This document shows, in pieces, positions 2,150 to 56,022 of a stretch of DNA of 64,000 bases (positions within the stretch are counted from its first letter, which is position 1; every line of letters begins with the position of its first letter). The stretch spans positions 1,854,423 to 1,918,422 of the forward strand of contig OZ252098.1 in NCBI GenBank assembly GCA_965248355.1, read 5' to 3'. The translations under genes and the position numbers were made by a program. The notes under the pieces are model-generated. The model was not told where the DNA came from. It did no database searches and was given only the letters and a program-made list of their open reading frames with translations. This DNA comes from Candidatus Latescibacterota bacterium. Lineage in GTDB: Bacteria; Latescibacterota; UBA2968; UBA8231.

Positions 2150-3565
2150 GCAAGTCCCATTTTCAGTTGAAACGTAGCCCAGGCTCGAGTGGATGAGTCA
2201 GCCCGTCATCGCGAGCTGTTTGAGGCCGAGTTCGGCTTGGAGCGCTTGTCGGAGCATCGGCAGGTGGTGGTAACCGTTGATCCGGCGCAGGCGAGGTTCG
2301 ATGTCGAGCAACGCCGTGGCGACCCAGCGGTGACGCTGCGACGAGTTCGTCCAGCGCCGCACGTTGTGCGTCAACTGCTCCAGGAGACTGTTGACGTTCT
2401 CGATACAGTTGGTGGTACGGAAGGAGGCCTTCAGCATCGGCATCAGGCCCAGGCGGTGGAGCGTGAGGGTTTCTTGCTGGCCTTCCTCCAAGCTGCGCAG
2501 GGCCGACTGGTTCATCAACTGCAACCCCGGTTTCAGCGCCTCCAGGGCGGCTTGGGCCTCCTCGTACGTCGAGTGCCCATACGCCGCTTCCAGCTTTCGA
2601 CGAAGGCCGGCCTGCTCGCTCTTGGGCAGGTACGAGACCACGTTCTGGCGCTTGTGATACTGGCATCGCTGCACGCAGGCATGGCCCTGGAGCACCGACC
2701 GCACTGCCTTGTACAGGCCCTTGCCTCCATCGATCACCACGAGCAGCCCGGCCTCGTATTGCAGGCCCCGCTCGACCAACTCCGCCAGGAAGCGACGACA
2801 GACGCGCTCGTTCTCGGTCGCCGCCTGCACGAAACCCAGAGGGATCTTGTGTCCTTCCACAGTGACGCCCAGGGCGATGAGGATTTCCTCGTCGGCAAAG
2901 CTCTTGCCGTCCAGAAACAGCGCCACCAGGTCGTAGCCTTCCAGGGATCGCTGCTGGAATTCGGCCAGCTTGCGCGCCGTGCCTTTCACATACCGGCGAG
3001 AGACCGAGGAACGGGACAGACCGAAGGCTTGCGGGACGGTCTCGGCGCAGGCCTCGTAGTTGCGCGTGGCCAGGCCCTTCAGCACCCGCAACAACAGCCC
3101 CTGATCCATCTGCCTCGGCGTCTGCAGGGCCTGGTAGGCCTCCAGCGGGACCTCGGTGCCGCGGACCACATCGCGCACGCGCGGCACCTCGACCGGCAGT
3201 TTCTGATCGCCCAGGTACACCGACCCGGCCTGCGCCCCCCAGCGGCGCAACGGCTGATCCGGCCCCTTGCGCTGATACCGAGGTCCGGCCAGGGCCTCCA
3301 CGCCCCGTCGCAGCTCCTCCCCAACCGCCTGCAGCCCCAGGGGGATCAGCAGCTGGATGATCTCGATGCGAGTCTCCAGATCGTCCATCGACGCGGTGGC
3401 TTGGCGGTTCACGGGGCCGATGGTCACGGTCCGTTTGACGCCCCTTTTCCGTGCTTGTAGCTTGCTCATGGCAGGCTCCTTGGGTTACCGAATACGAGGC
3501 TTCTTGGCGATTTCTCGTATCAAACGTAACGATGGGAGCCTGTGTTATTTCAACTAAGATCGGGA
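2150..3565 (-). mobile_element. IS256-family insertion sequence (approximate ends)
   Basis: A single 423-aa transposase is flanked by imperfect inverted ends sharing the core AGTTGAAA (2161-2177 tttcagttgaaacgtag; 3543-3559 tgttatttcaactaaga). GC drops abruptly to the right of 3560. Confidence 0.45.
2198..3469 (-). CDS. IS256-family (MULE) transposase, 423 aa, intact
   Basis: The protein MSKLQARKRGVKRTVT...LFLDGKSF...CVQRCQYHKRQNVVSYLPKSEQAGLRRKLEAAY...NCIENVNSLLEQL is typical of IS256 transposases (D-rich core, CxxH and NxIE motifs). Confidence 0.85.
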   Translation of the reverse strand: MSKLQARKRGVKRTVTIGPVNRQATASMDDLETRIEIIQLLIPLGLQAVGEELRRGVEALAGPRYQRKGPDQPLRRWGAQAGSVYLGDQKLPVEVPRVRDVVRGTEVPLEAYQALQTPRQMDQGLLLRVLKGLATRNYEACAETVPQAFGLSRSSVSRRYVKGTARKLAEFQQRSLEGYDLVALFLDGKSFADEEILIALGVTVEGHKIPLGFVQAATENERVCRRFLAELVERGLQYEAGLLVVIDGGKGLYKAVRSVLQGHACVQRCQYHKRQNVVSYLPKSEQAGLRRKLEAAYGHSTYEEAQAALEALKPGLQLMNQSALRSLEEGQQETLTLHRLGLMPMLKASFRTTNCIENVNSLLEQLTHNVRRWTNSSQRHRWVATALLDIEPRLRRINGYHHLPMLRQALQAELGLKQLAMTG

Positions 3566-4708: not shown

Positions 4709-5918
4709 TCAGCTCTCCCCGCCTCCCTCCGAGTCTACGTCCCGCCCCCCAACCACCTCCCGCCCCCGCCACAGCTCGTAGACCGCCGGCAACACCAACA
4801 ACGCCAGCAGGGTGGCGGTCGCCAGCCCGCCGACCATGGGCGCCGCGATCCGCTTCATCACCTGCGACCCGGTGCCCGTGGCCCACATGATCGGCAGCAG
4901 GCCGCCCACCGTCGAACCCACGGTCATGAAGATCGGCCGCACGCGCCGGGAGGCGCCCTCGACAATGGCGGCGGCGAGATCTCCGGGGCTTTCGAGAGGG
5001 CCCTCCTGGCGGCGGGCCTCCAGCGCCTGGTCGAGGTAGGTGAGCATGACCACGCCCAACTCGGCGCTGACTCCGGCAAGGGCGATGAACCCCACGCCCA
5101 CGGCGACGCTCATGTTGTAGTCGAGCAGGTAGATGAGCCAGATCCCACCGACCAGGGCGAAGGGCAGGGTCAACATCACCATCAAACTTTCCACGACGCT
5201 GCGGAAGTGGAGGAAGAGGAGCAGGAAGATGATGGCGAGGGTCACCGGGACGACGAGGCTCAGCCGCTCCTTGGCCCTCTCCATGTATTCGTACTGGCCG
5301 CTCCAGACCAAGCTGTATCCCTGGGGCAGGTCGATCTCCTCGCCCACGATCTCCCTGGCGCGCTCGACATAGGTGCCCACGTCGACGTCGCGGATGTCGA
5401 TGTAGACCCAGGCGTTGAGGCGCGCGTTCTCGCTCTTGATGCCGGGGGGCCCCTTGCGGATGCGCAGGTCGGCGACCTGCCCGATGGGGATCTGCGCCCC
5501 CGTGGGCGTGGCCACCAGGACCCGCCGCAAGGCGGGCAGGTTGTCGCGCAGCTCGCGCCCGTAGCGCAGGTTGACCGGGTAGCGCTCGCGGCCCTCCACC
5601 GTGTGGGTGATGTTCATGCCGCCCATGGCCGACAGGATCACCTCCTGCACGTCGCCCACCGTGAGCCCGTAGCGCCCCGCCTCCGCGGTCGCTCTCGAAG
5701 TCGACGTAGTTGCCGCCGGCAACCCTTTCGGCGTAGACGCTGGCCGTGCCCGGGATCTCGCGCACCACCTGCTCGATCCGCCGGCCCACCTCCTGGAGCG
5801 TCTCGAGATCGCCGCCGGCGACCTTGATGCCCACGGGGGTCTTGATGCCGGTGGAGAGCATGTCGATGCGCGTCTTGATCGGCATCGTCCAGGCGTTGGT
5901 CAGGCCCGGGAAGCGGAC
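4709..5918 (-). pseudogene. CusA/CzcA-type heavy-metal-efflux RND transporter, C-terminal ~400 aa only, frameshifted
   Basis: The minus-strand sequence ...VRFPGLTNAWTMPIKTRIDMLSTGIKTPVGIKVAGGDLETLQEVGRRIE... then ...GRYGLTVGDVQEVILSAMGGMNITHTVEGRERYPVNLRYGRELRDNLPALRRVLV...PFALVGGIWLIYLLDYNMSVAVGVGFIALAGVSAELGVVMLTYLDQA...MTVGSTVGGLLPIMWATGTGSQVMKRIAAPMVGGLATATLLALLVLPAVYELW matches the CusA family closely. The reading frame breaks near 5700 (FESDR|GGGALR versus the expected FESDREAAGRYGL). No N-terminal ~600 aa exists upstream, where the sequence runs into an ISKra4 remnant. Confidence 0.75.
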
Positions 5919-34560: not shown

Positions 34561-35388
34561 TCAGGCCGCCCGGTGGTAGACATCGCTGGGGGTCTCGTAG
34601 TCGAAGGCCTGGTGCGGCCGCTCGAGGTTGTAGAAGCGGAAGTAGGCCGCCACGCCCTCGATCAACTCGGGGACGCTGTCGTAGGCCTTCAGGTAGATGT
34701 CCTCGTACTTCAGGGAGCGCCACAGCCGCTCGATGAAGATGTTGTCCAGCACCCGGCCGCGGCCGTCCATGCTCACCCGGGCCCCGGCCGCCTCGACCCG
34801 CCCGGTGAAGGCGGTGCTGGTGAACTGGGCCCCCTGGTCGGTGTTGAAGATCTCCGGCCGCCCCTGGCTCAGGGCTTCCTCCAGGGCCTCCAGGCAGAAG
34901 GCCGCGTCGAGGGTGTTGGAGACCCGCCAGGCCAGCACGTAGCGGCTGAACCAGTCCATGACCGCCACCAGGTAGACGAAGCCGGAGGGCATCGGCAGAT
35001 GGGTGATGTCGCTGCACCACACCTGGTCCGGCCGGTTCACGGTCACCCCTCGCAGCAGATACGGATAGACCCGGTGCTGAGGGTTGGGGGTAGTCGGTCG
35101 CGGCCGGGGATAGATCGCCTGCAGGCCCAGGGCCTTCATCAGGCGGTGCACGCGCTTGGGATTGACCGGGTAGCCGTCCCGCCTCAGGGCCGCGCAGATC
35201 CGGCGCACGCCGTAGACCGGGTGCTCGGTGTAGATCCGGTCGATGGCGTTCATCAGGTCGAGGGTGAGCCGATCCGGCGCCTCCGGGCGGTAGTAGAAAC
35301 TGGAGCGGGCCAGCCCGAGCAGTTGGCACTGCCGATGCACGCTCAGCGGGCCGGGGTGCGGCTCGATGAGGGCGCGGCGCTCAGCCAC
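34561..35388 (-). CDS. IS3-family transposase OrfB (DDE integrase core)
   Basis: ...[42 protein letters not shown]...[11 protein letters not shown]...[13 protein letters not shown] has the rve-type integrase motifs. Confidence 0.85.
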
Positions 35389-35674
35389 CGAGAGCCTCGT
35401 GTTTTTTTTGAAGCCACTCCAGTTCCATCTGCAGCCGCCCGATCTGCTGGTAGAGCTCGGGCACCAAGGCGGCCTCGTCGTCGCCCCGGCGGGTCCCGGG
35501 GCCCCGGAAGACCTCGGGCAGCCGCTCCAGCAACTGCTTCTTCCAGCCGTGGATCTGGCTGGGGTGGACGGAGAACTTGTGGGCCAGCTCGTTGACTGTC
35601 TGCCGTTCGCGCAGAGCCTCCAAGGCCACCTTGGCCTTGAACTGCGCCGAATGCGTCTTGCGTTTCCTCGTCAT
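35381..35674 (-). CDS. IS3-family transposase OrfA (HTH_Tnp_1)
   Basis: [50 protein letters not shown]... is the typical IS3/IS911 OrfA. It overlaps orfB across the A-run frameshift window. Confidence 0.8.
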
Positions 35675-35717
35675 CCAAGCCCCTCCGGACAGTGGGTCGG
35701 TGGACGCAAAGTCTCGC

Positions 35718-36194
35718 TTAGCCACCTGTCCAGGATTTGGGGTACACTACCGGGAGCACGGCCTCGAGGTTCTTCGCCTTCGGAAATCTGCTCACCCTGA
35801 AGTCTTGCCCGTAGTAGGCTGTGAGAGCCTGCGGGTCGGCAACGATCCAGGTTTCCATCGACTGCACCATGAGGTGAACGCAAGCCTCTTCAGCAAAGCT
35901 CAGATCCCATCTGTCCCGGCTTTGCAGATGATCTCGAGAAGACTGATTGACCTTGACCGGTCCTTCGGCATCCACCAGCAGGACATTCACCACATTGTCA
36001 CTGCTCTTGACGGCATTCCTGAATCCTCGAAATGCCTCATCGCGGGGGCCGCAACAGACCAACTTCCAACGCATGGCCTTGCTCCTGGCCGCTTCCTTGA
36101 GGGACTGAAGAAAGGCGTCCATCCCCTGGCGAAGAGCCGCCCGGTTCTCCTTGCCGGTACCTCCGCCCTCCAAGTAGATGGCAATACCACTCAC
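35718..36194 (-). CDS. DUF4276-like (Toprim-like) protein, partner of the AAA ATPase; C-terminal 9 codons supplied by the IS3 terminus
   Basis: GTG 36194 overlaps the ATPase stop (GTGA). The protein [32 protein letters not shown]...[17 protein letters not shown]...[11 protein letters not shown]... has a Toprim-like acidic core. The last residues ...VYPKSWTGG* are encoded by the IS3 right inverted repeat (35725-35746). Confidence 0.6.
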
Positions 36195-37384
36195 GGGTTG
36201 GCGCCAAGCTCGCCCATCCGCCACAGGTCGCCAAGCCGGTAGTCGTCCAGCCAACTTGAGAGCTTCTCTGGATCGAGCCGCCGCAGCTCCGTGCCGGCTC
36301 CGGGTCGCTCGCAGGCGACGATGGCGGCTGGCTGATCGGTCAGCGCCGACACCAAGGCGTCGGAGTGCGTCGTGACCACAAGCTGCATCCGCTCTGAGGC
36401 CTCAACGAGAAGATCCGCGAGCATGGTCACGGCGTCGGGATGCAATCCGAGCTCGGGCTCCTCCATACAGACCAACGGTGGAGGTGTTGGGGACAGCAGA
36501 GTCGCCAACAGCCCAATGAATCGGAGAGTGCCATCAGACAGACGTGTTGCGGGGATAGGCGTGCGGAAGCCGGACTCGTGTAGGTAGAACTGTACTGTGC
36601 CCCCCGATATCGACGTGGTCATGCGCTCGAACCGGGGAAAGAACCGCTTGAGATGCTCATTGAATACCGGACCGGACTTGTGCTCGATCTGGTTGAGCAC
36701 CAATGCGAGATTACTGCAGTCGGGGAGCAGCCATTGCTCCGGAAGATCGGCGCGCTGCGGCTGTCGTATCCCGCCGTACCGGCCGAAGGTCCATTCTCGG
36801 AAGGTCTGAATGAGGTGGAACTTCACGCCGAGCCATGTCAGTTCGGGATATAGATCCAAGTCCTTACGCTGCGACAGTACCGACTGTTCCAAGGTGGGTT
36901 CGTCCAACTGCAATGTGCGCTCCTGGGACTGTTCACCAGGTGTCCTCACTCGAATCTTGATCATCCCTTTCTGATACTTGTAGTAAGAATATGGCCCGTC
37001 CCCCGGCGGAGTAGCTTCCTCGATTACCTCCTCCTGGATGTGGGCCTTTGGACCCATGATGGTAAAGGACAGACGGTACTTCAACGGCCTGCCGCTTCCA
37101 TAGCCGATGCTCTCGTAGGAACCTGTCTCGACTTCCAGGGTTGCAGCAGGCGGAGGCTTCGAGCCACTGCCCTTCCAGAGCCACTCCAGGGCACCGCCTC
37201 CGTCCCTGATCGCGGCCGCAAAATCCTTCGGTGCGGCTCTCAGGAGTTCCAGCACCTCGATGAAGTTGGTCTTCCCCGAGGCATTCGGACCGATGAGGAC
37301 GTTCAGAGGCTGCAGTTCGAAGGACTCCATGTCCGGAGGGAACGACAACAGCCCGCCCATGCGAAGACGCTTGATGAACTGCAT
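36191..37384 (-). CDS. AAA_21-type ATPase (OLD/PARIS/AbiL-like ATPase component), 397 aa
   Basis: Walker A LIGPNASGKTNFIEVLELL. Walker B/D-loop-like ...PPPLVCMEEPELGLHPDAV...VVTTHSDALV is the ABC-ATPase/SMC-like fold typical of abortive-infection ATPases. Confidence 0.8.
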   Translation of the reverse strand: MQFIKRLRMGGLLSFPPDMESFELQPLNVLIGPNASGKTNFIEVLELLRAAPKDFAAAIRDGGGALEWLWKGSGSKPPPAATLEVETGSYESIGYGSGRPLKYRLSFTIMGPKAHIQEEVIEEATPPGDGPYSYYKYQKGMIKIRVRTPGEQSQERTLQLDEPTLEQSVLSQRKDLDLYPELTWLGVKFHLIQTFREWTFGRYGGIRQPQRADLPEQWLLPDCSNLALVLNQIEHKSGPVFNEHLKRFFPRFERMTTSISGGTVQFYLHESGFRTPIPATRLSDGTLRFIGLLATLLSPTPPPLVCMEEPELGLHPDAVTMLADLLVEASERMQLVVTTHSDALVSALTDQPAAIVACERPGAGTELRRLDPEKLSSWLDDYRLGDLWRMGELGANP

Positions 37385-37750
37385 GGTTACCGGCTCCTCT
37401 CCCCCTGCAGTAATCTGTCAGGCGTGCAGTGACTCACCGAACCACCTCGTCCACCTGCGCCAGGATCTCCTCGACCGCCGGCCGGTCGGAGATGCTCTCC
37501 CCTGTGAACCTCCAGACGATGCGGCGCTCCGGGTCGATGATGAAGGCCGACGGCGCGGCGACGCCGTCGTTCAGGAGGTTGTAGACCCCGTAGTCCCGGG
37601 CCACGGCGCCGTCCTCGTCCGAGAGGATGGGGAACCCGGCGGCGGTGAGCTCCGCCATGTTGCGCGCGTCCTCCATGTCGTCGGTGCTGATGGCGGCGAG
37701 CGACATGTCGCGCTCCAGGAAGGCGGGATGGGACTCTGCCAGCTCACCTA

Positions 37751-38982
37751 GTGGTCAATCCACTTAGAATTGCGGAACAAGAGTGGCAGCCGTATCCTTT
37801 TTCCCCATCCCCTTTGTTGGAAAAGGAGTACGGCGTTGCCCAAGAAGAGATACATCGTCACTCTCACAGCCGAGGAGCGCACCGGGTTGCGCGATCTGAT
37901 CTCCAAGGGGAAAGCGGCGGCTTTCAAGCAGCGGCATGCGCGCCTTCTCCTGAAGACGGATCAAGGACCGCAGGGAGAGGGCTGGACCGACGAACGGATC
38001 GGGCAGGCGCTCGAGGTCCATCCCAGCACGGTCGAGCGTCTGCGCAGGCGATTCGTCGAAGAAGGCCTGGAGGCCGCCCTGCAGCGCAAGGAGCAGAAGA
38101 ATCGCCGGGCCAAGAAGATCGACGGGGAAGGCGAGGCTCGTCTCGTCGCGCTGGCCTGCAGTCCGCCGCCGGAGGGGAGAAAGGGCTGGACCCTCCGATT
38201 GCTGGCCGACCGCCTGGTGGCCTTGGAAGTGGTCGACCGGGTCAGCCCGGAAACCGTCCGAAAGACACTAAAAAAAACGACTTGAAGCCCTGGCGGCAGG
38301 AAATGTGGTGCCTGCCGGGCGCCCCCAATGCCGCCTTCGTCTGTGCCATGGAGGATGTGCTGGATGTTTATACCCGGCCCTACGATCCCCAACATCCCAC
38401 GGTCTGCCTGGACGAGACCAGCAAACAACTGGTGGGCGAGGTGCAGGCCCCTCGGCCGGCGATTCCGGGCCATCCGGCCCGGTATGATCATCATTATGTC
38501 CGCCAGGGCGTGGCCAACGTCTTCATGATGCTGGAACCGCTCACCGGCCGCTGCCACGTCCAGGTCACGCAGCAGCGCACCAAGAAAGATTGGGCTCGGG
38601 TGATGAAAGACCTGGTCGACCGCTACTACCCGGAGGCCGAGCGCCTGACCTTGGTCATGGACAACCTGAGTTCGCACCAGAAGGCGGCGTTGTACGATGT
38701 CTTTGCGCCGGCCGAGGCCAAACGCATCGCCGACAAGATCGACATTCATTTCACCCCGAAACGGGGCAGTTGGCTCAACATGGCCGAAATCGGGTTGAAG
38801 ATGCTGTCCCGGCAGTGTCTGGACCGACGCATCGCAACGATTCAGCAACTGAGCCAACAGGTCCAGGCTTGGCTGTCGCAACGCGAGAACAGCCAGGCCC
38901 CGGTCAAATGGCGATTCACCACCGAGAAGGCGCGCATCAAGCTGCACCGCCTCTATCCAGCATTGTTACCTGGATGAACCAC
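37751..38982 (+). mobile_element. IS630-family insertion sequence flanked by TA target-site duplication
   Basis: The ends are gtggtcaatccac... and ...ggatgaaccac, a perfect 8-bp match (GTGGT[C/T][A/C]ATCC). Flanking TA dinucleotides sit at 37749-37750 and 38983-38984. Confidence 0.8.
37770..38977 (+). CDS. IS630-family transposase (HTH N-part 37770-38285; DDE part continues in -1 frame after an A8 run at 38266-38273)
   Basis: The N-part MRNKSGSRILFPH...LTAEERTGLRDLISKGKAAAFKQRHARLLL is the HTH. The C-part ...VCLDETSKQL...LVMDNLSSHQ...WLNMAEIGLKMLSRQC is DDE-like. The slippery CTAAAAAAAACG joins the two frames (-1). Confidence 0.75.
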
Positions 38983-39224
38983 TAGCTGGGCCTTGCAGAA
39001 GCCTCAGAAGAATCCCCGGTAGAACACGAGGACCGCGGCGGCGCGGTCGTCGAGCAGGTCGGACAGGGACACGGGGTCGCCGTCCGCCGCTGGCAGGGTG
39101 AAGGCCGGCGCCTGCTCGTCGACGGAGACCGCCTTGGAAGAGGAACCGCAGCCCGGCAGAACCGCCAGGGCCGCGGCCGCCAGGAGCGGGACCACCCCTC
39201 TCGCCCCGCTCCTGGTGACGCCGT

Positions 39225-40052
39225 TCATCCTCCCTGCGCCTCGTTCAGCACCTCGCGCAGGTGCCGCACGGCGAGGCGGACGCACTCCTCCCAGCCGCAG
39301 CTGTTGCGGTCGCCGATCTCGAAGACGAGGCCCAGGCTGCTGTTGAACCCGACCTCCTGCAACAGGCGGACGACGCGCGGGTAGTCGATCCACTCCTCGT
39401 GCCCGGCGTCGATCTTGTAGATCTTGGCGCGCACGTACACGGCGTGGGGCGCCGTGGGCCGCAGGTAGTCCTCGTAGAGGTCGACGTCCGGGTCGAACTC
39501 GCCCCGGATATGGGAACCGATCGCCCCCTTCCACTGCCCCGTGTCCATTAGGAAGCGGAAGTTCGGGCGGTCCACGTCGCCCAGGATGCGCAGGGCCTGG
39601 TGGGCGGTCATGCAGCAGCTGCTCTCGTCGTGGTTCTGCAGGGCCAGGGTCACGCCCTGCGCGGCGGCGTAGTCGGACAGCTCCTGGAAGCTGGCCACCA
39701 TGGGCGCCCACAGGCGCTCCTGCTCCTCCTCGGTGTCCGGCCACTTGGCGCGGGCGAAGACGCGCAGCATCTGGGCGCCCAGCAGCGCCGCCGTGTCCAC
39801 GTCCTGCCGGCCCTGGGCGAGGCGCCGCTCCTTCTCCTCCACGGGGCCGGCGTAGGAGCCGGAGCCGGCGTAGCCGATGGTCAGGCCCCGGCGTACGCAG
39901 TGCCAGCGCACGGCCTTGACCCGCTCCGGGTCGCGGTCCATGCCCGACAGGTGGATGTCGATCCCGTCGAGACCCAGCCCTGCGGCCAGGTCCACGGTCT
40001 CGTCGATGGGGGCTCCCGCCCCCTCGCGCGCCATCATGCTCAGTCGAATCAC
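39225..40052 (-). CDS. sugar phosphate isomerase/epimerase (xylose-isomerase-like TIM barrel)
   Basis: ...IDIHLSGM...GYAGSGSYAGPVEEKERRL...VTLALQNHDESSCCMT... follows the AP-endonuclease-2/XylA-like TIM pattern. Its stop overlaps the downstream redoxin ATG (ATGA). Confidence 0.75.
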   Translation of the reverse strand: MIRLSMMAREGAGAPIDETVDLAAGLGLDGIDIHLSGMDRDPERVKAVRWHCVRRGLTIGYAGSGSYAGPVEEKERRLAQGRQDVDTAALLGAQMLRVFARAKWPDTEEEQERLWAPMVASFQELSDYAAAQGVTLALQNHDESSCCMTAHQALRILGDVDRPNFRFLMDTGQWKGAIGSHIRGEFDPDVDLYEDYLRPTAPHAVYVRAKIYKIDAGHEEWIDYPRVVRLLQEVGFNSSLGLVFEIGDRNSCGWEECVRLAVRHLREVLNEAQGG

Positions 40053-40957
40053 TCGTCCCTCTCCTTCAGGCTTTCGGGTGAAAGGCTCTCCACGATCAGT
40101 CGGCAGGCCTCGGCGATGGTCCCGGCGCCGTCCGCGTCGTCGCCGGCGGCGGTGGCGAAGCCGGCCGCCGCCAGCGGGCCCGACGGCAGGAACAGGAGGC
40201 CCGCGTCCCCCTTGATCCGTCCGCTCGAGCCGTACTTGTGCGCCACCTCCACCTCCGGATCGAGGTGGCGGGGCAGCATGGTGCGGTTGGCGGCGCTCCT
40301 CAGCAGGTCCATCATCCGCGACGAGGCAGCCTCGTCGACCACCTGGCCCTCGTGCAGGGCCTTCAGCAGGCCGCCCATGTGGGCCGGGGAAGCGACGTTG
40401 TTCTCGGGCGCGTCATGGTAGGGCCAGGCGCCGTGGTCGAGCCCCTCCGTCCGCATGCGCCGCATCATCTCCTCGTCCGCCTCCAGGCTCGGGGTCCGGT
40501 CGGGCATGTTCACCATGGCGTAGTGGTAGCGGCCCATGGTGCTGCGAGTGCGCAGGTCCGGGAAGCCGAGGCGCTCCATGGTGGCGTTCACGTTCTCCAG
40601 GCCCACCACGCCCATGAGCATGTCCGTGGCCACGTTGTCGCTGACGCCGATCATCAGGCGGCAGTAGTCGAGGAGGGTCAACTCCGGCTCGTCCTTGGTC
40701 AGGCTCAGGGCGCCGGAGCCGTGGGTGCTGATGGGGCCGCCCAGCCGCCGGCGCTCGGACAGGGACAGCTCGCCGGCCGCGGCCTGGCGGAAGAGCTCGA
40801 CCATGACCGGCACCTTGCAGACGCTCGCCGTGGGGAACCGCTGGCCGGCGTTGACCGCCGCCGTGGCCCCCGAGGCGAGGTCCTCCGCGTAGAAGCCGAA
40901 GCGACCGTCGAAGGCCGCCGCGAGGGCCTCCAGCTCGCGCTGCGGAAAGGCGGTCAC
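40049..40957 (-). CDS. class A beta-lactamase-related serine hydrolase
   Basis: Motifs: SxxK (TASVCKV), SDN (GVSDNVATD), and KTG-like (HKYGSSG). No obvious signal peptide. Its stop overlaps the downstream GTG (GTGA). Confidence 0.7.
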   Translation of the reverse strand: MTAFPQRELEALAAAFDGRFGFYAEDLASGATAAVNAGQRFPTASVCKVPVMVELFRQAAAGELSLSERRRLGGPISTHGSGALSLTKDEPELTLLDYCRLMIGVSDNVATDMLMGVVGLENVNATMERLGFPDLRTRSTMGRYHYAMVNMPDRTPSLEADEEMMRRMRTEGLDHGAWPYHDAPENNVASPAHMGGLLKALHEGQVVDEAASSRMMDLLRSAANRTMLPRHLDPEVEVAHKYGSSGRIKGDAGLLFLPSGPLAAAGFATAAGDDADGAGTIAEACRLIVESLSPESLKERDE

Positions 40958-47686: not shown

Positions 47687-47850
47687 GGTTGCCCACCGCC
47701 CGAGGGTGATCGGCAGGCGCCGGTCGGGGCCTCGGTGAGCGCCGGGTTGGCGTCGAGGCACAGGCGCAGGGCGTCGAGATCCCGGTCGCGGACGGCGGCG
47801 AAGAAGCCGACCAGCTCGGCGTGGGAGAACGCCCCATTCGCGTCGTTCAC
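47596..47850 (-). pseudogene. ankyrin-repeat-like N-terminal fragment ORF (84 aa) overlapping the convergent sialidase 3' end
   Basis: SD AAGGAGG sits 4-5 nt before GTG 47850, which overlaps the ankyrin-gene stop (GTGA). The first ~40 aa, VNDANGAFSHAELVGFFAAVRDRDLDALRLCLDANPALTEA, read as an ankyrin N-cap. The remainder is low-complexity and overlaps 46466-47686 by ~90 bp. Confidence 0.3.
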
Positions 47851-48968
47851 GACGCCTCCTTCAGGAACTTGCACCCGAACCGGGCCAGCTGGACGGCGGT
47901 CTTGCCCGCGGGCGTCTCGATCGAAGTGTCCGCTCCGAGCACGATCAGGATCTCCGCCGCTTCGACCTCGCCGGTGTAGGTCGACCTGTGCAACGGCGTG
48001 CGCCCCTTCGAGTCGGGCTGGTTCAGGTCGGCGCCGCGGGCGGCCAGCAACCAGATCATCTCCGTGAGTCCCCACTCCGCGGCCAGGTGCAGCGGCGTGC
48101 GATCGGTCTCCGTGACGGCATCGACCTCGGCTCCATTCGCCAGCAACCAGGTTGCGCAGCGCGCGGCATCGCCTCGCACCGCCCAGTGCAGCGGCGTCAT
48201 GCCGGCCTCGTGGCGGGCCGTGACCGCGTCCGCATCGCTCTCCACCAGTTCCCTCACACGGGCCAGGTCGTCCCGGCCGCAGGCCGAGTAGATGTCGTGG
48301 TACGCGCCACGCTCGAGGAGGAACTCGGCGAACTGCATCCGCTCGCTCCACAGCTTCGGATTGTGCCAGGGCGCAAAGGCGCCATCGAAGGGCGGCGCCA
48401 CCGCGTCCTGCAGCACCGTCCGGCCCCGTTCGCCGTTGCCGGTGACCTCGGCTTCCAAGTCGCCCCCGTACTCGAGGACGAACTCCGCCACCTCCCGTGG
48501 CTTGTGGATGCACCCGTACAACAAAGTCGCGTGGCCGGGGATTCCCCTGGGCTTGGCGTTGACCACATTCGCGTTGGAGACCCCCGCGTCGAATAGCGTC
48601 CGCAGGGACTGCTGGTTGCCCTTGGCGAAGGCCCGGAAGATCGGGTGGTACTCGTGCCCGCGGTCCATCCCCGTCTGGCAGTCGTACAGCTCATCGACGC
48701 CCTGCTCCAGAAGGAACCGCACCGCGTCGAGGGTCCCGTGGTAGACGGCGGCCGGCACGAGAGCCAGCGATCCGACCGTGCCGACGAGGGAAGAGTCCTC
48801 CTTCAGCAGGGCCTTCATCCGGGGCACATCGCACTCGGCGTGGCTGTCGTCGGTCGCGCCGTGAGCGGCGGCCGTGACGAACTCTCTCTCACGGCGGGTC
48901 AGCTTCCGGCCCTCTCGCCGCTCGAAGGCGGCCTCCACCCGAATCCTCACTCTCTCCGCAGGGTCCAT
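47847..48968 (-). CDS. ankyrin-repeat protein (373 aa)
   Basis: Repeated ...GMTPLHWAVRGDAARCATWLLANGAEVDAVTETDRTPLHLAAEWGLTEMIWLLAARGADLNQPDSKGRTPLHRS... is canonical ANK consensus. Confidence 0.8.
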   Translation of the reverse strand: MDPAERVRIRVEAAFERREGRKLTRREREFVTAAAHGATDDSHAECDVPRMKALLKEDSSLVGTVGSLALVPAAVYHGTLDAVRFLLEQGVDELYDCQTGMDRGHEYHPIFRAFAKGNQQSLRTLFDAGVSNANVVNAKPRGIPGHATLLYGCIHKPREVAEFVLEYGGDLEAEVTGNGERGRTVLQDAVAPPFDGAFAPWHNPKLWSERMQFAEFLLERGAYHDIYSACGRDDLARVRELVESDADAVTARHEAGMTPLHWAVRGDAARCATWLLANGAEVDAVTETDRTPLHLAAEWGLTEMIWLLAARGADLNQPDSKGRTPLHRSTYTGEVEAAEILIVLGADTSIETPAGKTAVQLARFGCKFLKEAS

Positions 48969-48973
48969 TTCGG

Positions 48974-50350
48974 TCAGCGAAACAGGAGTGCGCCGAAGTC
49001 GTCCGGGTTGTGGGCGCTGATGCCGAAGGTGCGGACCCACTGCGCGTATTCGCGCCCGCGGAAGGTCCGGGAGAAGTTGAAGCCCCAGACCGTCCCGGGC
49101 TTCGGCCGTTGCAGCTGCGGCTGGCCGAACTCCAGCCGGTACTCCAGCGACCAGAGATCGTCCCCGACGTGGGCGGCGGCCTCGCCGTCGGCATCCCAGG
49201 CCCGTTCCTCGTCGGTGATCCGCCGCTCACCCCTGGACAGGAATCTGTCCGATACGACCCCCATCGTGTTGACCCCGGCGTGCACGTAGTCCCGTCGATC
49301 GAGGTCCGCATCGATGAAGAGCTCCACCATGTCGTCCCACCAGATCTCCCCGTCGCGACCGTGATCCCCGACGACGAGGCTGTCGGGGTGATCGTCGAAC
49401 CCCCGGAAGCCGATGAACAGGGCCTCGGATGTGTAGCCCGCGAGGAGCTGGGTCCGGAGATCGGAAGCCATGGCGGCGTTGTGCCTGTTGCTGAACTGGT
49501 AGAAGGTGTCGGCCCGCGCCGCCGTGGCCCACAGGGGCTCATCGAGCCGGCCGTCGATCCGCGGCGCCGATCGAAACCGGGGAACGTCCAGAAGCATGCC
49601 GTGCTGCCGCAGGCGCTCCAGACCTTCGTCGACGCGGCCGTTGTCGTAGAGGTGCCGGCCCAGCCGGTAGTTGGCTCGCCGGCTGCCGGGCCAGGCGGCG
49701 ACGGCCTGACGGTACAGGTCCACCGCCAGAGCCAGGTCGGCCTGCAGTTCGGCCTTGCGGGCGGCTTCCAGCAACTCGTCCACGGTGCCGGAGAGTTGGA
49801 TCCGCGCCTCCAGGCGGGTGCCGTCGTGGCTGGAGCTCGCGAGCGGCAGCGCCAACGCCCGGGCGCGCCTGCGCAGGTCCTCGTCCAGTCCGTCGAGTTG
49901 GTTCAGGGCCTGGAGGAGCTCATAGCGAACCTCGGCCTGGCTCTCCGTCTCCAGGGCCTGCACGAGAGCGCCGGCGGCCTCGGCGCGCCCCTGCAGGCCC
50001 AGACCCCGGGCGATGCGAGCGCGGACCTCGGCGTCGGCGTCGGTGAGCATGTGGTGCTCCAGACGGAGACGGATGCGTTCGTCCTCGACTCGCGTCAGCA
50101 GGCTCAGCAGGACATCGACCAGGTACGGCCGGGCCGCGGCCCGGGCGGGATCCTCGAGGGCGGCCAGCAGGGGCGTCACGGAGCGGTCGGTGGCCAGCAG
50201 CAGCTCCTGGCGGGCCGATTCCCGCTGCTCGGGGTCTTCGAGCTGCTCCACCAGGCCGTCGAGACTCGGCCCGCATGCCGTCAGACTCAGAGCCTGCAGG
50301 AAGGCCAGGGCTCGCGTGCGTCTTTGAGCGCCGGAGGGTTGGTGTCTCAT
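48974..50350 (-). CDS. lipoprotein with HEAT/TPR-like helical repeats and C-terminal CBM9/DOMON-like domain (458 aa)
   Basis: Lipobox LSLTAC is in MRHQPSGAQRRTRALAFLQALSLTACGP. Helical repeats span ...LLAALEDPARAAARPYLVDVLLSL...VRARIARGLG... The C-terminus ...GRLDEPLWATAARADTFYQFSN...ALFIGFRGFDD...WSLEYRLEF...GFNFSRT is CBM9-like. Confidence 0.7.
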   Translation of the reverse strand: MRHQPSGAQRRTRALAFLQALSLTACGPSLDGLVEQLEDPEQRESARQELLLATDRSVTPLLAALEDPARAAARPYLVDVLLSLLTRVEDERIRLRLEHHMLTDADAEVRARIARGLGLQGRAEAAGALVQALETESQAEVRYELLQALNQLDGLDEDLRRRARALALPLASSSHDGTRLEARIQLSGTVDELLEAARKAELQADLALAVDLYRQAVAAWPGSRRANYRLGRHLYDNGRVDEGLERLRQHGMLLDVPRFRSAPRIDGRLDEPLWATAARADTFYQFSNRHNAAMASDLRTQLLAGYTSEALFIGFRGFDDHPDSLVVGDHGRDGEIWWDDMVELFIDADLDRRDYVHAGVNTMGVVSDRFLSRGERRITDEERAWDADGEAAAHVGDDLWSLEYRLEFGQPQLQRPKPGTVWGFNFSRTFRGREYAQWVRTFGISAHNPDDFGALLFR

Positions 50351-51776: not shown

Positions 51777-54700
51777 TCAGTGCGCAACGGCCTCCCTTTG
51801 TGACCCCGGAGCAGCCGCCGCTTCCGCCAGCGGCAGCAGCCACAGCACCTGCTCCGGCGCGTGGCGCTCGTCGGCGGGAATGCCTGCGGCGTGCACGGCC
51901 GCCGAGCCTTCCAGGCGCCCGTGGTTCCCGTGGGGCGACCGGTCCGCCAGCGGATCCGGCCCATCCATCGGCAACCAGCCCACCAGACCCGGCTCGTCGC
52001 CCCGCAGCCCTTCGTGCATGGACTGCCGGATCTGTTCCTGAGTGCGCGCCACGTTCCAGATCTGGGCGTCGTCGATCAGGGCCGCCGTGTGATCGTTATA
52101 GCCGCTGGCGCCGATCCAGACCGGATTGGTCGTCGAGTTGATCCGCCGGCCGTGGACCGGCTCTTCCGCCACCAGCTCGCCATTGACGAACACCCGCATG
52201 TGCCTGCCGTCGTAGGTGGCCGCGTAGTGCACCCACTCGTGGTAGGGCAGCCAGTAGCCCCGCAGGCCGGTCTGGCTGCCGTCCTCCCAGCGCAGGTGGA
52301 AGCCGCCTCGGGGCAGGTGCAGCACGTACGACCAGGTCTCGTCGGCCTGCCGCCACTTGCCGATGACGGTGCCGGCACCGCCGCCGTCGTCGACTCGATA
52401 GATCCAGGCCGCCATGGTGATCTGGTCGCCAATGTCGAGCGAGGCCGTCGGCTTCAGGTGCATGTAGCCGGGGTGGCCGCGCGTCGCAGTGACCTGCGAC
52501 AGCACGCTGTGCACGCTGTGTGACGGACCCACCTCGGCCAGCATCGACTGCACCCGCTGGTTGAAGGTGCCCCCCGCGGCGCGCAGAACCGTCTCGAGCT
52601 CGGGGCGCTCCTGGTCCACCGCGATATCGAGGGCCGAGCGACCGTCCCAGCGCAGTTGCTGAATCCGCGCCGGATCCTCGGAGAGGATCGCACGCACCCG
52701 CTCGACATCGCCGGTCGTCACCGCGGAGATCAGGTCCACGTGGGCGCCGCGGTCGAGGAGCAGCCCGATGAAGTCGTCACCGCAGCCCTCGTCCAGGGCC
52801 CGCTGCAGCGGCGTCCAGCCCTTGCTGTCGCGCCCGTTCACGTCGGCGCCGCGGTCGAGGAGGGCCGCGGCGATTTCGGTCTCGCAGCCGTCGGCGGCGT
52901 GGTTCAGCGGCGCGCCCGTCGTTCCCCGGTCCCAGATCAGCGGCGACACCTCGTGGAGGCGCCGGGGATCCTCGTCCAGCTCGGCCAGCAGCCGTTCACC
53001 GTTTCCGAGCATGACGAGGTGGGCCAGGTCGTAGGGCCCGCCCGCCTCGATCAGCATCTCGAAGGCCGGGATGTAGGTCCGCTTGTTGCGCTCCTGCGAG
53101 CCCTCCCTGGCCGTGCCGTGCATGACCTCCTCGGTGGGCTCGCCGCCGTGGGCCAGGTAGAGCTCGACCAACCGCGGGTTGCCGAAGAACCCCGCGTAGC
53201 CCATGGCCGTGCGGCCCTGTCCGCGCGCCTGGCCGCCTCTCGCGTTGACGTCGGCGCCGTGCTCGATCAGCAGCCGGGCGATCTCGTACTCGGCATCGCT
53301 GGCGTTGGTGTACACCGTGACGACGCGATGCAGGAAGGTGCTGCCGTGGACCGGCGCATCGGGCGAATGGATCCTCGCCGACGCCAGGCTCGGATCCCCC
53401 TCCAGCAGGGTCGCCACGGCGGCGGGGTCGTCGCGGTCGACGGCCATCATCATGTTCAGGCTGCCGGCCACCTGCCGGGCGGCGCGCACCGGATAGCGCT
53501 CGCCGGCGTCGATTCGAAAGTCCTCCATGAAGACGTCGCGCACGGCGATGCGCCACCAGCCGCCCGACGGCCCTCCGGGGCGACTGAAGTAGGCGATGAA
53601 GGGACGCAGCGCCAGGCCCCAGGCCGCCTCGCCGGTCACCAGGGTCTCGTCGTATCCGGCGCCGACGAAGGTGACGCCGCTGATCAGCTCGACATGGTTC
53701 GCGTACGTGCCGGGCGCCAGCTGCACGGTGTCGCCGTAGCTGGTCGCCGCCAGCGACCGCTGGATCGTCGCGAAGGGACGCTCGGCGCTGCCGTCGCCGC
53801 CGGGCGCCGCGTCGTCGTCGACGTGGAAGCGAGTGCCCAGGTCCTGCAGCGTGACGCTCACCGCCGAGGTCTCGCCGCTGTCGATGTCGACGCCCTCGGC
53901 GAGCGCCCGGTAGCCGTTGGTGTTCAGCCGCACCGTGTACGACCCCGGCGGCAGCGGCTGCCGGGCGAGGCCCTCGGCGTTCGTGATGTCGGCCATGACC
54001 AGCCCGTCGCCCTGCCAGACCTCGTACCGCGCCCCCTCGAGCGGCGCCTCGCCGCCTCGGGCGTCCACCTGCAGCGTGCCCAGCGGCCCGGCCGCCAGGA
54101 TGAGCCGGCCCACGTTGGGCGGCCGGTGCTTGGCGCGGTTGGGCGTCCACGCGATCCAGGCCGAGGTGTCCCCGGGCCCGTCGTTGTCGACGGCGACCAC
54201 GTCGAAGGACAGGATCAGCCCCGGCCGCAGCTCGACCGGCTCGTCGGCCGATTCGCCAAGGGCGGTCAGGGCCCACTCGTACACGCTGACGTCGCCGCGG
54301 CGCCCGAACACGGCCCGCGTGCCGACACTCTCGGCGGACTTCTCGTCGTCCAGGTGCTCGTGGTACACGGCGGGATTGCCGGCTTCGAAGTAGCCTCCGC
54401 CGGGCGGCACCAGGCTGTAGCAGTAGGGCGGCACGTGCAGAAGGCCGGCCAGGTTGATCTCGCCCGCGTCGGTGGCGCGCACGTTGTGCCAAGCCGTCTG
54501 CACCCGGTCGTCCCGGTGCTCCATGGCGACGTAGATCTTTTGCGCTTCGACGCTGTAGCCGACGCGGAAGCTCGGGCTGAAATCGGCGCTGATATCCAGA
54601 TCGGTGCCCGACAGATCGGTGGAGCCGTAGACGTCCGTGTTCTCCCGCGGCGTGAACACCGCCATGTCCCCGGGCCAGTCGTCGAGCTTCCCGTCGACGG

Positions 54701-54884
54701 TGATCCCCGACAGGGGCACGGCGAAGGCCGTCCGGCCGACGGGCGGCTCGACCGGCGCCGCCGGCTCCGCCTCGGCGCGCGGAGTCCCGGCGGCCGCTAG
54801 CCCCGCCGCCGCCATCACCACCGCGAACGCCTTGGCGGCAAACCGGCTGGTACGGCGCACCGCGCCGTCTCGCGTGAATTTCAT
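51777..54884 (-). CDS. 1035-aa secreted multi-domain protein: signal peptide, CBM9-like, carboxypeptidase-regulatory-like, pectin-lyase-type beta-helix, ankyrin repeats, C-terminal LamG/concanavalin-like lectin domain
   Basis: SD GGGAGG sits before ATG 54884. Signal MKFTRDGAVRRTSRFAAKAFAVVMAAAGLAAAGTPRAEA. CBM9-like ITVDGKLDDWPGDMAVF...SVYEWAL. CarboxypepD_reg-like GARYEVWQGDGLVMADITNAEGLARQPLPPGSYTVRLN. Beta-helix ...ERPFATIQRSLAATSYGDTVQLAPGTY... ANK LIEHGADVNARGG... and LLDRGADVNGRDSKGWTPLQRAL. LamG ...MAAWIYRVDDGGGAGTVIGKWRQADETWSYVLHL...VHYAATYDGRHMRVFVNGELV...IDDAQIWN. Confidence 0.75.
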   Translation of the reverse strand: MKFTRDGAVRRTSRFAAKAFAVVMAAAGLAAAGTPRAEAEPAAPVEPPVGRTAFAVPLSGITVDGKLDDWPGDMAVFTPRENTDVYGSTDLSGTDLDISADFSPSFRVGYSVEAQKIYVAMEHRDDRVQTAWHNVRATDAGEINLAGLLHVPPYCYSLVPPGGGYFEAGNPAVYHEHLDDEKSAESVGTRAVFGRRGDVSVYEWALTALGESADEPVELRPGLILSFDVVAVDNDGPGDTSAWIAWTPNRAKHRPPNVGRLILAAGPLGTLQVDARGGEAPLEGARYEVWQGDGLVMADITNAEGLARQPLPPGSYTVRLNTNGYRALAEGVDIDSGETSAVSVTLQDLGTRFHVDDDAAPGGDGSAERPFATIQRSLAATSYGDTVQLAPGTYANHVELISGVTFVGAGYDETLVTGEAAWGLALRPFIAYFSRPGGPSGGWWRIAVRDVFMEDFRIDAGERYPVRAARQVAGSLNMMMAVDRDDPAAVATLLEGDPSLASARIHSPDAPVHGSTFLHRVVTVYTNASDAEYEIARLLIEHGADVNARGGQARGQGRTAMGYAGFFGNPRLVELYLAHGGEPTEEVMHGTAREGSQERNKRTYIPAFEMLIEAGGPYDLAHLVMLGNGERLLAELDEDPRRLHEVSPLIWDRGTTGAPLNHAADGCETEIAAALLDRGADVNGRDSKGWTPLQRALDEGCGDDFIGLLLDRGAHVDLISAVTTGDVERVRAILSEDPARIQQLRWDGRSALDIAVDQERPELETVLRAAGGTFNQRVQSMLAEVGPSHSVHSVLSQVTATRGHPGYMHLKPTASLDIGDQITMAAWIYRVDDGGGAGTVIGKWRQADETWSYVLHLPRGGFHLRWEDGSQTGLRGYWLPYHEWVHYAATYDGRHMRVFVNGELVAEEPVHGRRINSTTNPVWIGASGYNDHTAALIDDAQIWNVARTQEQIRQSMHEGLRGDEPGLVGWLPMDGPDPLADRSPHGNHGRLEGSAAVHAAGIPADERHAPEQVLWLLPLAEAAAAPGSQREAVAH

Positions 54885-55020
54885 TCCCGATTGCCTCCCG
54901 GCTCTCGCGCAGGCACCAGCGCAGCTCGTCGCCATCGTGCTCAACTCTCCTGTCGCGCTTACTATCATGGGGCCGCTCTCATAGGGCCGCTCGGCCTGCC
55001 TTCCACCCGGAGACTCCTCG

Positions 55021-56022
55021 ATGACCAGTCCCGAACCGATCAACTGGGGAATCCTGAGCACCGGCCGCATCGGCTCCACCGCCTTCATCCCCTCGGCCCG
55101 GGCCACCCCCGGCGCCCGGGTCCACGCCGTGGCCAGCCGCAGTCAGGACAGGGCCGACGCCTTCGCCCGCCAGCACGACATCCCGGTGGCCCTGGCCGGT
55201 TACCAGGCCCTCGTCGAACATCCCGAGATCGACGCCATCTACATCTCGCTGCCCAACTCGCTCCATGCCGAGTGGACCCTGGCCGCGGCCCGGGCGGGCA
55301 AGCACGTGTTCTGCGAGAAGCCCCTGGCCGTCACCGCGGCCGAGGGCCGGCGGATGGTCGCCGCCTGCCGCGAGGCGGGGGTCCTGCTCTTCGAGGCCTT
55401 CGTCTTCATGCACCACCCCCAGAGCCGGCGCCTTCTGCAGATCATCGGGTCGGGGGAGATCGGGGCCCTGCGCCACATCGATGCCGGCATGACCTTCGTC
55501 GTCGACGATCCCGCCAATATCCGCATGATCGAGGCGCTGGGCGGCGGCAGCATCTACGACGGCGGGGTCTACCCCATCACCTTCTCACGCTTCATCGCCG
55601 GCGCCGACCCCGTGAGCGTGCTGGCACACATGCGCTTTGACGAGCACGCCGGGGTCGACGTGGCGGTCTCGCTGATTCTCGAGTTCCCCGGCGGGCTCAC
55701 GGCGACCTTGTACTGCGGCTTCCAGGGCCGTGGCGGCGCCCATGCCCGGATCACCGGGGACCGGGGCCGGGTGGTGGTGCCCAGCCCCTACCATCCCGGC
55801 CCCGAGAGCCGCTTCGAGGTCGTCCCGGCCTCCGGCGAGGAGCGCACCGAGACGACCCGCACGGGGACCCCGCCGTTTCAGCCCGCCATCCACTTCTTCC
55901 AGCGGTGCATGCGCGCCGAGGAGACCCCCGCGTACATGGCCGACCACGCCGAGGGCACCCTCAGGGTGGTGGAGGCGGCCTTTGCATCCGCCCGTACCGG
56001 CCGGCGGGTGGATCTGGCCTGA
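55021..56022 (+). CDS. Gfo/Idh/MocA-family oxidoreductase
   Basis: INWGILSTGRIGSTAFIPS... plus HVFCEKPLA fits this family. Confidence 0.85.
   Translation: MTSPEPINWGILSTGRIGSTAFIPSARATPGARVHAVASRSQDRADAFARQHDIPVALAGYQALVEHPEIDAIYISLPNSLHAEWTLAAARAGKHVFCEKPLAVTAAEGRRMVAACREAGVLLFEAFVFMHHPQSRRLLQIIGSGEIGALRHIDAGMTFVVDDPANIRMIEALGGGSIYDGGVYPITFSRFIAGADPVSVLAHMRFDEHAGVDVAVSLILEFPGGLTATLYCGFQGRGGAHARITGDRGRVVVPSPYHPGPESRFEVVPASGEERTETTRTGTPPFQPAIHFFQRCMRAEETPAYMADHAEGTLRVVEAAFASARTGRRVDLA

Follow-up and report, generated by a model that had tools for sequence, protein, structure and literature searches.

Does an in-frame TGA within a bacterial redoxin gene mark a site of selenocysteine (Sec) incorporation, or a gene that had already been lost? 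This question is raised by a 64,000-nt stretch of contig OZ252098.1 from a Candidatus Latescibacterota bacterium (assembly GCA_965248355.1), in which a minus-strand redoxin gene carries an in-frame TGA and, shortly beyond it, an insertion sequence (IS) of the IS630 family. Throughout, "the window" denotes this whole stretch, and positions are counted within it. An earlier sequence-only reading had left two possibilities standing: a selenoprotein gene inactivated by an IS inserted into its Sec insertion sequence (SECIS) element, or a Cys codon turned into a stop by mutation. We conclude that the locus is very probably an exported Sec-containing lipoprotein gene of the thioredoxin fold, knocked out by an IS630-family insertion into its SECIS hairpin. 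This is an ordinary and well-documented kind of pseudogenisation within a known selenoprotein family, not a new kind of system, and present understanding of Sec decoding is unaltered by it.

The Interrupted Gene and Its Rebuilt Frame

The redoxin gene starts with an ATG at 39228 on the minus strand and meets the in-frame TGA at 39006-39004. The product of the 5' open reading frame (ORF) reads MNGVTRSGARGVVPLLAAAALAVLPGCGSS...VLVFYRGFF up to the TGA. Seven codons past that stop, after ...CAG CTA, the IS begins, and reading resumes on its far side as GGT GAG CTG GCA GAG.... When the IS (37751-38982) and one TA are deleted, a frame of 561 nt (186 codons and a stop) is restored. Its sole internal stop is the TGA, in the context FYRGFF-U-GFCKAQLGEL, so that both the repair and the position of the TGA as the first residue of a UxxC motif are exactly as the sequence-only reading had given them. 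The 5' segment (38983-39228, minus strand; codons 1-82) comprises a predicted signal peptide with a putative lipobox and the N-terminal part of the AhpC/TSA domain, and it also includes the predicted Sec codon with the first half of the putative SECIS; tblastn of the rebuilt protein placed residues 1-82 at 39228-38983. The predicted Sec codon (residue 75) occupies 39004-39006 and the codon for Cys78, the second residue of UxxC, 38995-38997, both on the minus strand. The 3' segment (37434-37748, minus strand; codons 83-186 and the stop) is free of any further lesion.

Translated with Cys for the stop, the rebuilt protein matched Pfam AhpC-TSA over residues 36-161 and model positions 1-123 of 124 (E = 7.7e-30; 103.8 bits against a cutoff of 26), and it also matched the Pfam Redoxin model. 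The domain is thus spanned end to end, in agreement with the complete Prx/TlpA-like fold that had been proposed. Lipidation is predicted from the sequence pattern only: the lipobox L-P-G-C (residues 24-27; 39148-39159, minus strand) would make Cys27 the first residue of the mature protein. Its Pro at position -2 is atypical, the orthologues having LAGC, LVGC, IAGC or FIGC at this place. No intact redoxin paralogue was found within the 64-kb window, and a scan of the window guided by GC content at third codon positions (GC3) revealed no other gene with an in-frame TGA.

The redoxin start codon overlaps the stop codon of an upstream xylose-isomerase-like TIM-barrel gene in an ATGA arrangement (39225-39228), which suggests translational coupling within an operon. 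Such an operon would also include a beta-lactamase-family gene at 40049-40957.

Conservation of the TGA Codon

To place the TGA in an evolutionary context, we collected homologues by a protein search with the rebuilt sequence and added 80 loci from metagenomes and 79 from the genomes of GTDB species. The peptide pattern used in the genome scan admitted Cys at the Sec position, so any sampling bias would run against TGA. Among database proteins, the nearest matches were about 17 pieces of 102-112 residues that cover only the C-terminal 55% of the protein, and three N-terminal pieces, all of which end exactly at ...VLVFYRGFF. Gene callers break up selenoprotein genes in just this way. Uninterrupted alleles, which the sequence-only reading had proposed to look for, are indeed present in relatives: the loci L001-L004 read TTC TGA GGN NNN TGY ... 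CAR CTA GGT GAG YTG and remain open to a normal stop. Intact orthologues also occur on complete Latescibacterota chromosomes, for example OZ220690, OZ244561 and CBDCSU01. A regular expression applied to all loci recovered 147 family members whose homologous codon is TGA and a single one in which it is TAA; TGC and TGT did not occur. At another 22 loci, which that expression missed, a stop likewise occupies this codon, FYRTGG-U-GPCRTQLGEL being one of the sequence variants. The frame is open on either side of the TGA in the homologues (~165 examined), which come from Latescibacterota (some labelled Gemmatimonadetes), Chloroflexota (Dehalococcoidia, SAR202 and Anaerolineae) and Spirochaetes, with locus GC contents from ~30% to ~70%. 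The locus thus shows what is expected of a bacterial selenoprotein gene, namely a UGA at the position of a redox-active Cys, conserved together with coding sequence on both sides.

These results bear directly on the other option of the sequence-only reading, that of a nonsense-mutated Cys codon. The gene would then have been defunct ahead of the IS insertion. At identities of 37% or less, relatives such as P0021 and P0028 do have CxxC at the motif, and Sec machinery was not seen in the window. Against this, the TGA stands at the identical codon in ~165 homologues from three phyla, with a conserved frame on either side and never as TGC or TGT. Further, a ratio of nonsynonymous to synonymous substitution rates (dN/dS) of 0.26-0.46 relative to close relatives, together with the lack of any further lesion, argues against long decay. 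The orthologues thus refute the nonsense mutation, which we consider extremely improbable.

It could also be supposed that a variant code, or readthrough stimulated by the hairpin described below, leads to the UGA being translated as one of the standard amino acids (Trp, Gly or Cys) rather than as Sec. In support of this, gene callers applying code 4 have assigned Trp to the codon in two homologues (P0017 and P0018, full-length database proteins with W at the Sec position), and neither tRNA-Sec nor SelB was found in the window or the fetched loci. However, TGA is the normal stop of 18 of the 23 confident genes in the window, which indicates a genome without UGA reassignment. The hosts of the homologues range from 30 to 70% GC across several phyla, none of which, to our knowledge, is known for reassigning UGA. 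Moreover, the codon falls where a thioredoxin fold has its redox-active Cys, the hairpin has both the location and the G-rich apex expected of a bacterial SECIS, and the literature already lists the family as a selenoprotein family. Decoding as a standard amino acid therefore appears very unlikely, and Sec remains our preferred reading of the codon.

The Trp calls are of interest for annotation in their own right. In P0017 and P0018 and at the loci L005, L006 and L007, public gene calls give the Sec codon as Trp, the caller apparently having used code 4 for short contigs, and this artefact could conceal other selenoproteins. This widespread family is systematically split into two fragments, or mistranslated with Trp, in public gene calls from Latescibacterota, Chloroflexota (SAR202 and Dehalococcoidia among them) and Spirochaetes. 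The alignment of 129 sequences described below, combined with a simple hairpin rule, would allow these annotations to be repaired.

Several further variants were observed among the homologues. The single TAA occurs in a Dehalococcoidia-like metagenome homologue (L014:1385-1387) whose gene is otherwise intact, which points either to a true pseudogene or to an error in sequencing. In L084 and L086 (FFQRCG-U-GPD), Asp stands in place of the UxxC Cys, and a Cys two residues before U creates CxU, so that the resolving residue has possibly shifted. Some Chloroflexota genomes carry two tandem Sec-containing paralogues, each with a TGA and a hairpin (L132:9362 and 10115; L144:9047 and 9569).

A Covarying Hairpin Directly 3' of the UGA

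The sequence-only reading had described a 6-bp stem with an apical loop containing GGU about 20 nt past the UGA, and this hairpin is present in the window as described once the IS is deleted (CCAGCU-AGGUG-AGCUGG). The fold of a single window cannot separate such a hairpin from chance; conservation in ~165 homologues settles the question. We aligned 129 distinct 48-nt segments, without gaps, and numbered them from the U of UGA as 1. Across the family, positions 18-24 pair with positions 28-34. The stem starts 14 nt past the UGA, the apex lies ~21-25 nt downstream, and an apical G followed by G or U occupies positions 25-26.

The seven pairs differ in how far they vary among the 129 segments. 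Pair 20-32 is invariably A-U, and pair 19-33 is C-G in 126/129. Pair 22-30 is mostly C-G (120, with A-U in 6), and pair 23-29 mostly U-A (118, with U-G in 11). Pair 24-28 is C-G in 82 segments and G-C in 9, and pair 18-34 is C-G in 49, G-C in 34 and U-A in 8. The strongest exchange was seen at pair 21-31, with G-C in 69, A-U in 47, G-U in 7 and A-C in 6 (Fisher p = 6e-21). Overall, 91.2% of the cells were paired, compared to 14.8-39.4% when the 3' partner was slid by 1-3 columns. The covariation score of 0.300 exceeded that of the controls (<=0.076) and was reached by 0 of 500 shuffles. Because relatedness among the sequences inflates pairing counts, we also counted events on a neighbor-joining tree of the proteins, and found at least 21 independent switches between G-C and A-U at pair 21-31.

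In most members of the family the hairpin ends in a triloop closed by C-G. In the clade of the window, position 24 is A, which yields a 6-bp stem and an AGGUG loop. The codons at the apex in the window are CTA, used for 0.5% of Leu codons here, and GGT, used for 5% of Gly codons. The retention of two such rare codons in a genome of 70% GC is a sign of selection at the RNA level.

The position of this hairpin fits both that of Escherichia coli fdhF and the rules of bSECIS searches, and SelB is known to contact G-U in the apical loop of bacterial SECIS elements. Like the SECIS elements of E. coli fdhF and fdnG, the family hairpin is a stem-loop within the coding sequence, directly 3' of the UGA, with an apical G followed by G or U. 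It differs in its size, having 6-7 bp and a loop of 3-5 nt as opposed to the ~40-nt fdhF element, and in showing no evident bulged U. We refer to it as a predicted SECIS. The covariation defines an unusually small candidate element, of 7 bp with a triloop or 6 bp with a pentaloop. A covarying stem-loop following the UGA is thus present in the family and in the IS-deleted window, and is split by the IS in the window as it stands.

A number of results weigh against the interpretation of the locus as a selenoprotein gene disrupted in its SECIS. The 22-nt hairpin, with a predicted energy of -8.8 kcal/mol (z = -0.7, to -1.25), is short and thermodynamically unexceptional; as this energy is not distinctive, it alone neither supports nor refutes the element. 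RNAalifold recovered only the central four of the seven pairs, with a consensus energy of -1.72 kcal/mol, and Rfam gave no relevant match for either the window or the intact L089 site. The peptide Q-L-x-E-L is intrinsically self-complementary in its codons, so that part of the pairing comes free. With regard to the decoding machinery, ARAGORN, run on the window and on the flanks of 60 loci, detected no tRNA-Sec. Pfam searches identified no SelA, SelB or SelD among the ~35 ORFs of the window, which represents 64 kb of a ~6-Mb genome, and tblastn with E. coli SelD and SelA queries against the window and 166 loci gave one weak SelA-like match, in L150. Finally, the insertion is known from one assembly, which is compatible with either a fixed or a minority allele.

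The self-complementarity of the codons suggests one specific alternative, that the hairpin is a mere by-product of the conserved peptide Q-L-G/V-E-L and has no function as RNA. Positions 19, 20, 23, 29 and 32 are indeed set by amino acids, and the unremarkable z-scores and weak RNAalifold consensus would be in keeping with this. Since part of the pairing is free, only synonymous and compensatory changes count as evidence, and these speak for a function. The synonymous third and first codon positions at 21 and 31 exchange G-C for A-U together, as detailed above. One concern was that the codons CAA and TTG, which create the A-U form, might simply mark AT-rich genomes. We therefore divided the sequences by the GC3 of their genes, and the association remained significant in each tertile (p = 4e-6, 1e-5 and 3e-7). 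Other compensations alter the amino acids themselves: Q-I...D-L, in which Leu becomes Ile and Glu becomes Asp, occurs with A22-U30, and CUG...CAG with G24-C28. The flanking pair 18-34, which lies outside the motif, covaries as well, and the Leu codon of the 3' arm has a final G in 98% of sequences, compared to 53% of the remaining Leu codons of these genes. Together with the rare CTA and GGT codons kept by the window, these patterns leave a hairpin without RNA function highly improbable. No paralogue with Cys in place of Sec (pattern C..C..QL.EL) was detected in the window or the fetched loci.

Identity of the Protein and Its Published Family

The selenoprotein reading also finds support in the identity of the protein. 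Its best relatives of solved structure are the BCP/PrxQ protein 2cx3 (2.6e-12), Mycobacterium tuberculosis AhpE and Bacillus subtilis ResA. In alignments to solved peroxiredoxins, U75 falls on the Ser/Thr of the T/SxxC motif and Cys78 on the peroxidatic Cys, an arrangement that corresponds to a thioredoxin-style U-x-x-C in which U replaces the first Cys of CxxC. The alignment therefore upholds the earlier placement of the TGA at the first Cys of CxxC. The description of that residue as the nucleophile went further than the alignment, in which it is Cys78 that takes the peroxidatic position. Based on the UxxC motif, signal peptide and lipobox, we propose that the intact protein would most likely act as an extracytoplasmic thiol-disulfide oxidoreductase forming a selenenylsulfide, or as a thiol peroxidase, the choice between the two being likewise a matter of prediction.

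This subfamily is not covered by any NCBIfam model, none of which reached its cutoff. The best NCBIfam match was NF040769 (SelL-related), which resembles the window protein over the N-terminal 100 residues including the redox motif. Against a cutoff of 120, the window protein scored 68.4 bits, and four further members of the family scored 48-77 bits. We rejected membership in SelL/NF040769 because of this score and because only the first 100 of 173 model positions aligned. Canonical peroxiredoxins (PrxQ/BCP and AhpC) were rejected as well, their models scoring 22-48 bits against cutoffs of 140-272; relative to their PxxxT/SxxC active site, FYRGFFUGFC keeps the Cys at the peroxidatic position, but Sec replaces Thr/Ser and Arg replaces Pro. 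The NCBIfam families PrxU, ResA and WAxxUGC were ruled out on score. The window protein shares its fold with PrxQ/BCP and ResA/TlpA, and Cys78 aligns with the peroxidatic Cys, but it differs by Sec in place of the peroxiredoxin Thr/Ser and by its putative lipoprotein signal.

A previous survey of the Global Ocean Sampling (GOS) selenoproteome lists a family named Prx-like 1 in its Table 2, with the domain pfam00578, a UxxC motif and 225 selenoprotein sequences (Zhang and Gladyshev, 2008; PMC2398784). A 2026 review likewise includes a Prx-like thiol:disulfide oxidoreductase (PF00578, UxxC/UxxU) as a high-confidence prediction since 2004 (PMC13188914), a listing that, according to this review, goes back to Kryukov and Gladyshev (2004). 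In the "#Prx-like 1" section of supplementary file 3 of PMC2398784, the entry JCVI_READ_852987 reads ...VIIVFYRGYFUGICRAQLGELSQNH.... It aligns with the window protein over the full length including the signal peptide (32% identity; pairwise E = 2e-38), and is a close homologue of P0018/L005. This full-length homology indicates that the family has already been published as a selenoprotein family. The window protein has the PF00578 domain, the UxxC motif (as U-G-F-C) and homology to a listed member, and it shares with the GOS/Sargasso Sea proteins the placement of UxxC and a putative lipoprotein-type signal. It differs in being interrupted by an IS, and its clade (Latescibacterota and MAGs, i.e., metagenome-assembled genomes, labelled "Gemmatimonadaceae") has the 5-nt AGGUG loop with CUAG. 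With a TGA kept in ~165 homologues, a covarying hairpin and a homologue listed under "#Prx-like 1", the selenoprotein option of the sequence-only reading is the one supported, and the opposite outcome, orthologues that all have Cys and share no hairpin, was not observed. What is new here is the IS-disrupted member, the taxonomic spread of the family among MAGs, the covariation support for a minimal SECIS and the account of the insertion site in terms of CTAG.

Insertion of the IS Into the Hairpin Apex

We then considered the element responsible for the disruption. The IS (37751-38982, plus strand) is 1,232 bp long and has a GC content of 61.6%, compared to 69.5% in the window. Its orfA (37836-38285, plus strand) starts with TTG behind an AAGGAG ribosome-binding site and encodes the helix-turn-helix (HTH) DNA-binding part of the transposase (Pfam HTH_32 and HTH_23). 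A run of eight A residues (38270-38277, plus strand) forms the -1 shift site that joins it, by ribosomal or transcriptional slippage, to orfB (38276-38977, plus strand, -1 frame), which encodes the DDE_3 catalytic domain (Pfam E = 1.4e-24). The fused product of 380 aa scored 237.8 bits against the IS630 transposase model NF033545 (cutoff 100), confirming the earlier naming of the element as IS630. The ends of the IS form imperfect inverted repeats (19/30 positions matching), and both junctions read CTAG, with a TA on either side (copy 1 at 38983-38984, copy 2 at 37749-37750). Transposase score, HTH and DDE_3 domains, inverted repeats and TA duplication within CTAG all place the element in the IS630 family. 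No second copy was found in the window or in the loci L001-L166.

Frameshifting or transcriptional realignment has been documented in the IS630 family, for example in IS630 of Roseiflexus (PMC5009743). Compared to IS630 of Shigella sonnei (IS630/Tc1/mariner family), the window element is alike in its HTH and DDE_3 domains, imperfect inverted repeats, TA duplication and CTAG target. It differs in requiring a -1 shift on A8, which is known for some members of the family and not for the prototype.

The sequence-only reading had located the target TA inside the stem-loop, and our numbering confirms this. TA copy 1 corresponds to U23, in the last pair of the stem, and A24, the first base of the loop, within the CUAG of the hairpin apex. 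IS630 prefers the TA inside 5'-CTAG-3' (Tenzen and Ohtsubo, 1991, as cited in PMC2170065). The 64-kb window contains 12 copies of CTAG. Since two of them are the IS junctions, 11 existed before the insertion, as compared to 763 TA dinucleotides. A Markov model predicts 77 and base composition alone 179, meaning that CTAG is depleted 6-15-fold in the window. As the SECIS apex of the window's clade is itself one of these rare preferred targets, the insertion can be explained without invoking a remarkable coincidence.

Further insight into the event comes from relatives with an empty site. The IS-deleted window is colinear across the junction with L089, a Candidatus Latescibacterota MAG (87.8% DNA identity over 5,016 bp), with L090 (84.7% over 4,664 bp) and with L088, labelled "Gemmatimonadaceae" COS4_bin_9 (89.6% over 3,340 bp). 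In all three, the redoxin gene is intact, has a LAGC lipobox and encodes a protein 81-85% identical to that of the window. The dN/dS between the window redoxin and these three was 0.26-0.46, and given the lack of any other lesion, the insertion looks recent.

It may be asked whether the IS is fixed at all, or whether it represents a minority allele or an assembly join, with a functional redoxin in most cells. The single assembly and the lack of secondary decay in the redoxin gene are consistent with this, and ISs, of which the window contains three types, are classic sites of population heterogeneity. On the other hand, the perfect TA duplication, complete inverted repeats, intact transposase and canonical CTAG point to real transposition as opposed to a mis-join, and the flanks on either side are colinear with those of the relatives. 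We consider an insertion that is not fixed unlikely, though worth keeping in mind, and return to the disrupted selenoprotein gene as the preferred interpretation.

From the directly supported features, that is, the IS boundaries with their TA duplication, the restored ORF, the empty site, the conserved TGA, the covariation and the homology to a published family, the following sequence of events can be proposed. The gene would encode an exported lipoprotein of the AhpC/TSA superfamily with a U-x-x-C redox motif, its Sec inserted at UGA; Sec insertion itself, lipidation and export, and the enzymatic role are predictions. In intact relatives, the mRNA hairpin that starts 14 nt past the UGA, with 6-7 bp and an apex rich in G-G/U, would recruit SelB carrying Sec-tRNA(Sec), and the UGA would be read as Sec. 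In the window, an IS630-family element has transposed into the TA of CUAG at the apex, duplicating this TA. The 5' arm (C18-U23; 38984-38989, minus strand) now lies 1,234 nt from its partner; the remaining part of the hairpin, from the GGUG of the loop (G25-G28) through the 3' arm (A29-G34), lies at 37739-37748 (minus strand). At such a distance, the hairpin cannot form. With the arms 1.2 kb apart and the ORF split, translation must stop at the UGA after 74 residues unless this codon is read through. Any readthrough would reach a TAG within the IS, 17 codons past the UGA, after 16 extra residues. Either truncated product lacks the thioredoxin fold, leaving the redoxin null. The locus thus appears as a clean natural knock-out, in which a UGA has been parted from half of its SECIS, and documents the loss of a selenoprotein by transposition. 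A limited literature search found no published description of an IS inside a bacterial SECIS.

A Possible Insertion Hot Spot and the Genomic Neighborhood

Because selection at the RNA level appears to hold the apex as C-U-A-G-G-U, and thereby maintains one of the rare CTAG sites of the genome, the hairpin may be a recurrent target for IS630-type insertions or IS-linked rearrangements. If so, IS-rich symbionts would have a specific route to selenoprotein loss. We offer this idea as speculation that is more probably wrong than right by a wide measure. The sole hint of recurrence is L172, a 934-bp metagenome contig from a separate sequencing run (Logan SRR14652024) that contains only the 3' half of the same redoxin gene, 88-90% identical to L090 and L088. 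Its homology ends at the equivalent of window position 37739, at the foot of the 3' hairpin arm and ~10 nt from the IS site. Upstream of this breakpoint lies an unrelated, oppositely oriented gene for a YgjP-like metallopeptidase. Either an independent rearrangement that struck the hairpin or chimeric assembly of the contig may account for L172. In a gene of 560 nt, a breakpoint placed at random would lie this near the IS site in ~4% of cases, and L172 is a single, post-hoc case. The ORF upstream of the L172 breakpoint, which ends in "...YVIMHE", had been considered as a Y1 (IS200/IS605) transposase; this was rejected since Pfam identifies it as the YgjP-like metallopeptidase (HExxH), and L172 therefore gives no sign of another mobile element.

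Immediately beyond the 3' end of the redoxin gene, the window encodes an AAA_21 ATPase (36191-37384, minus strand) and a DUF4276 protein (35718-36254, minus strand), which match HEC-01A (495 bits) and HEC-01B (164 bits), a candidate defence pair in PADLOC. This pair is syntenic in L089, L090 and L172, and absent from L088. An IS3-type element (rve, HTH_21 and rve_3; 34561-35746, minus strand) abuts the 3' end of the HEC-01B gene, and synteny with L089 ends at window position 35758, a second IS-associated breakpoint less than 2 kb from the first. Elsewhere in the window, a Mutator/IS256-type transposase (2198-3484, minus strand) is found beside a partial AcrB-like ORF (4709-5899, minus strand) that matches only the last ~300 of 1,021 model positions; here, too, a mobile element has probably destroyed a gene.

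Eukaryote-like ankyrin-repeat proteins are typical of sponge symbionts, and the window encodes two large ones (47847-49226 and 51777-55142, minus strand), one of which also contains Laminin_G_3, PEGA and CarboxypepD_reg domains. Several of the closest MAGs bear isolate labels (COS4_bin_9, SB0670_bin_29 and SB0661_bin_36) that seem to resemble the names of bins from sponge metagenomes. The host genome looks like that of an IS-rich sponge symbiont.

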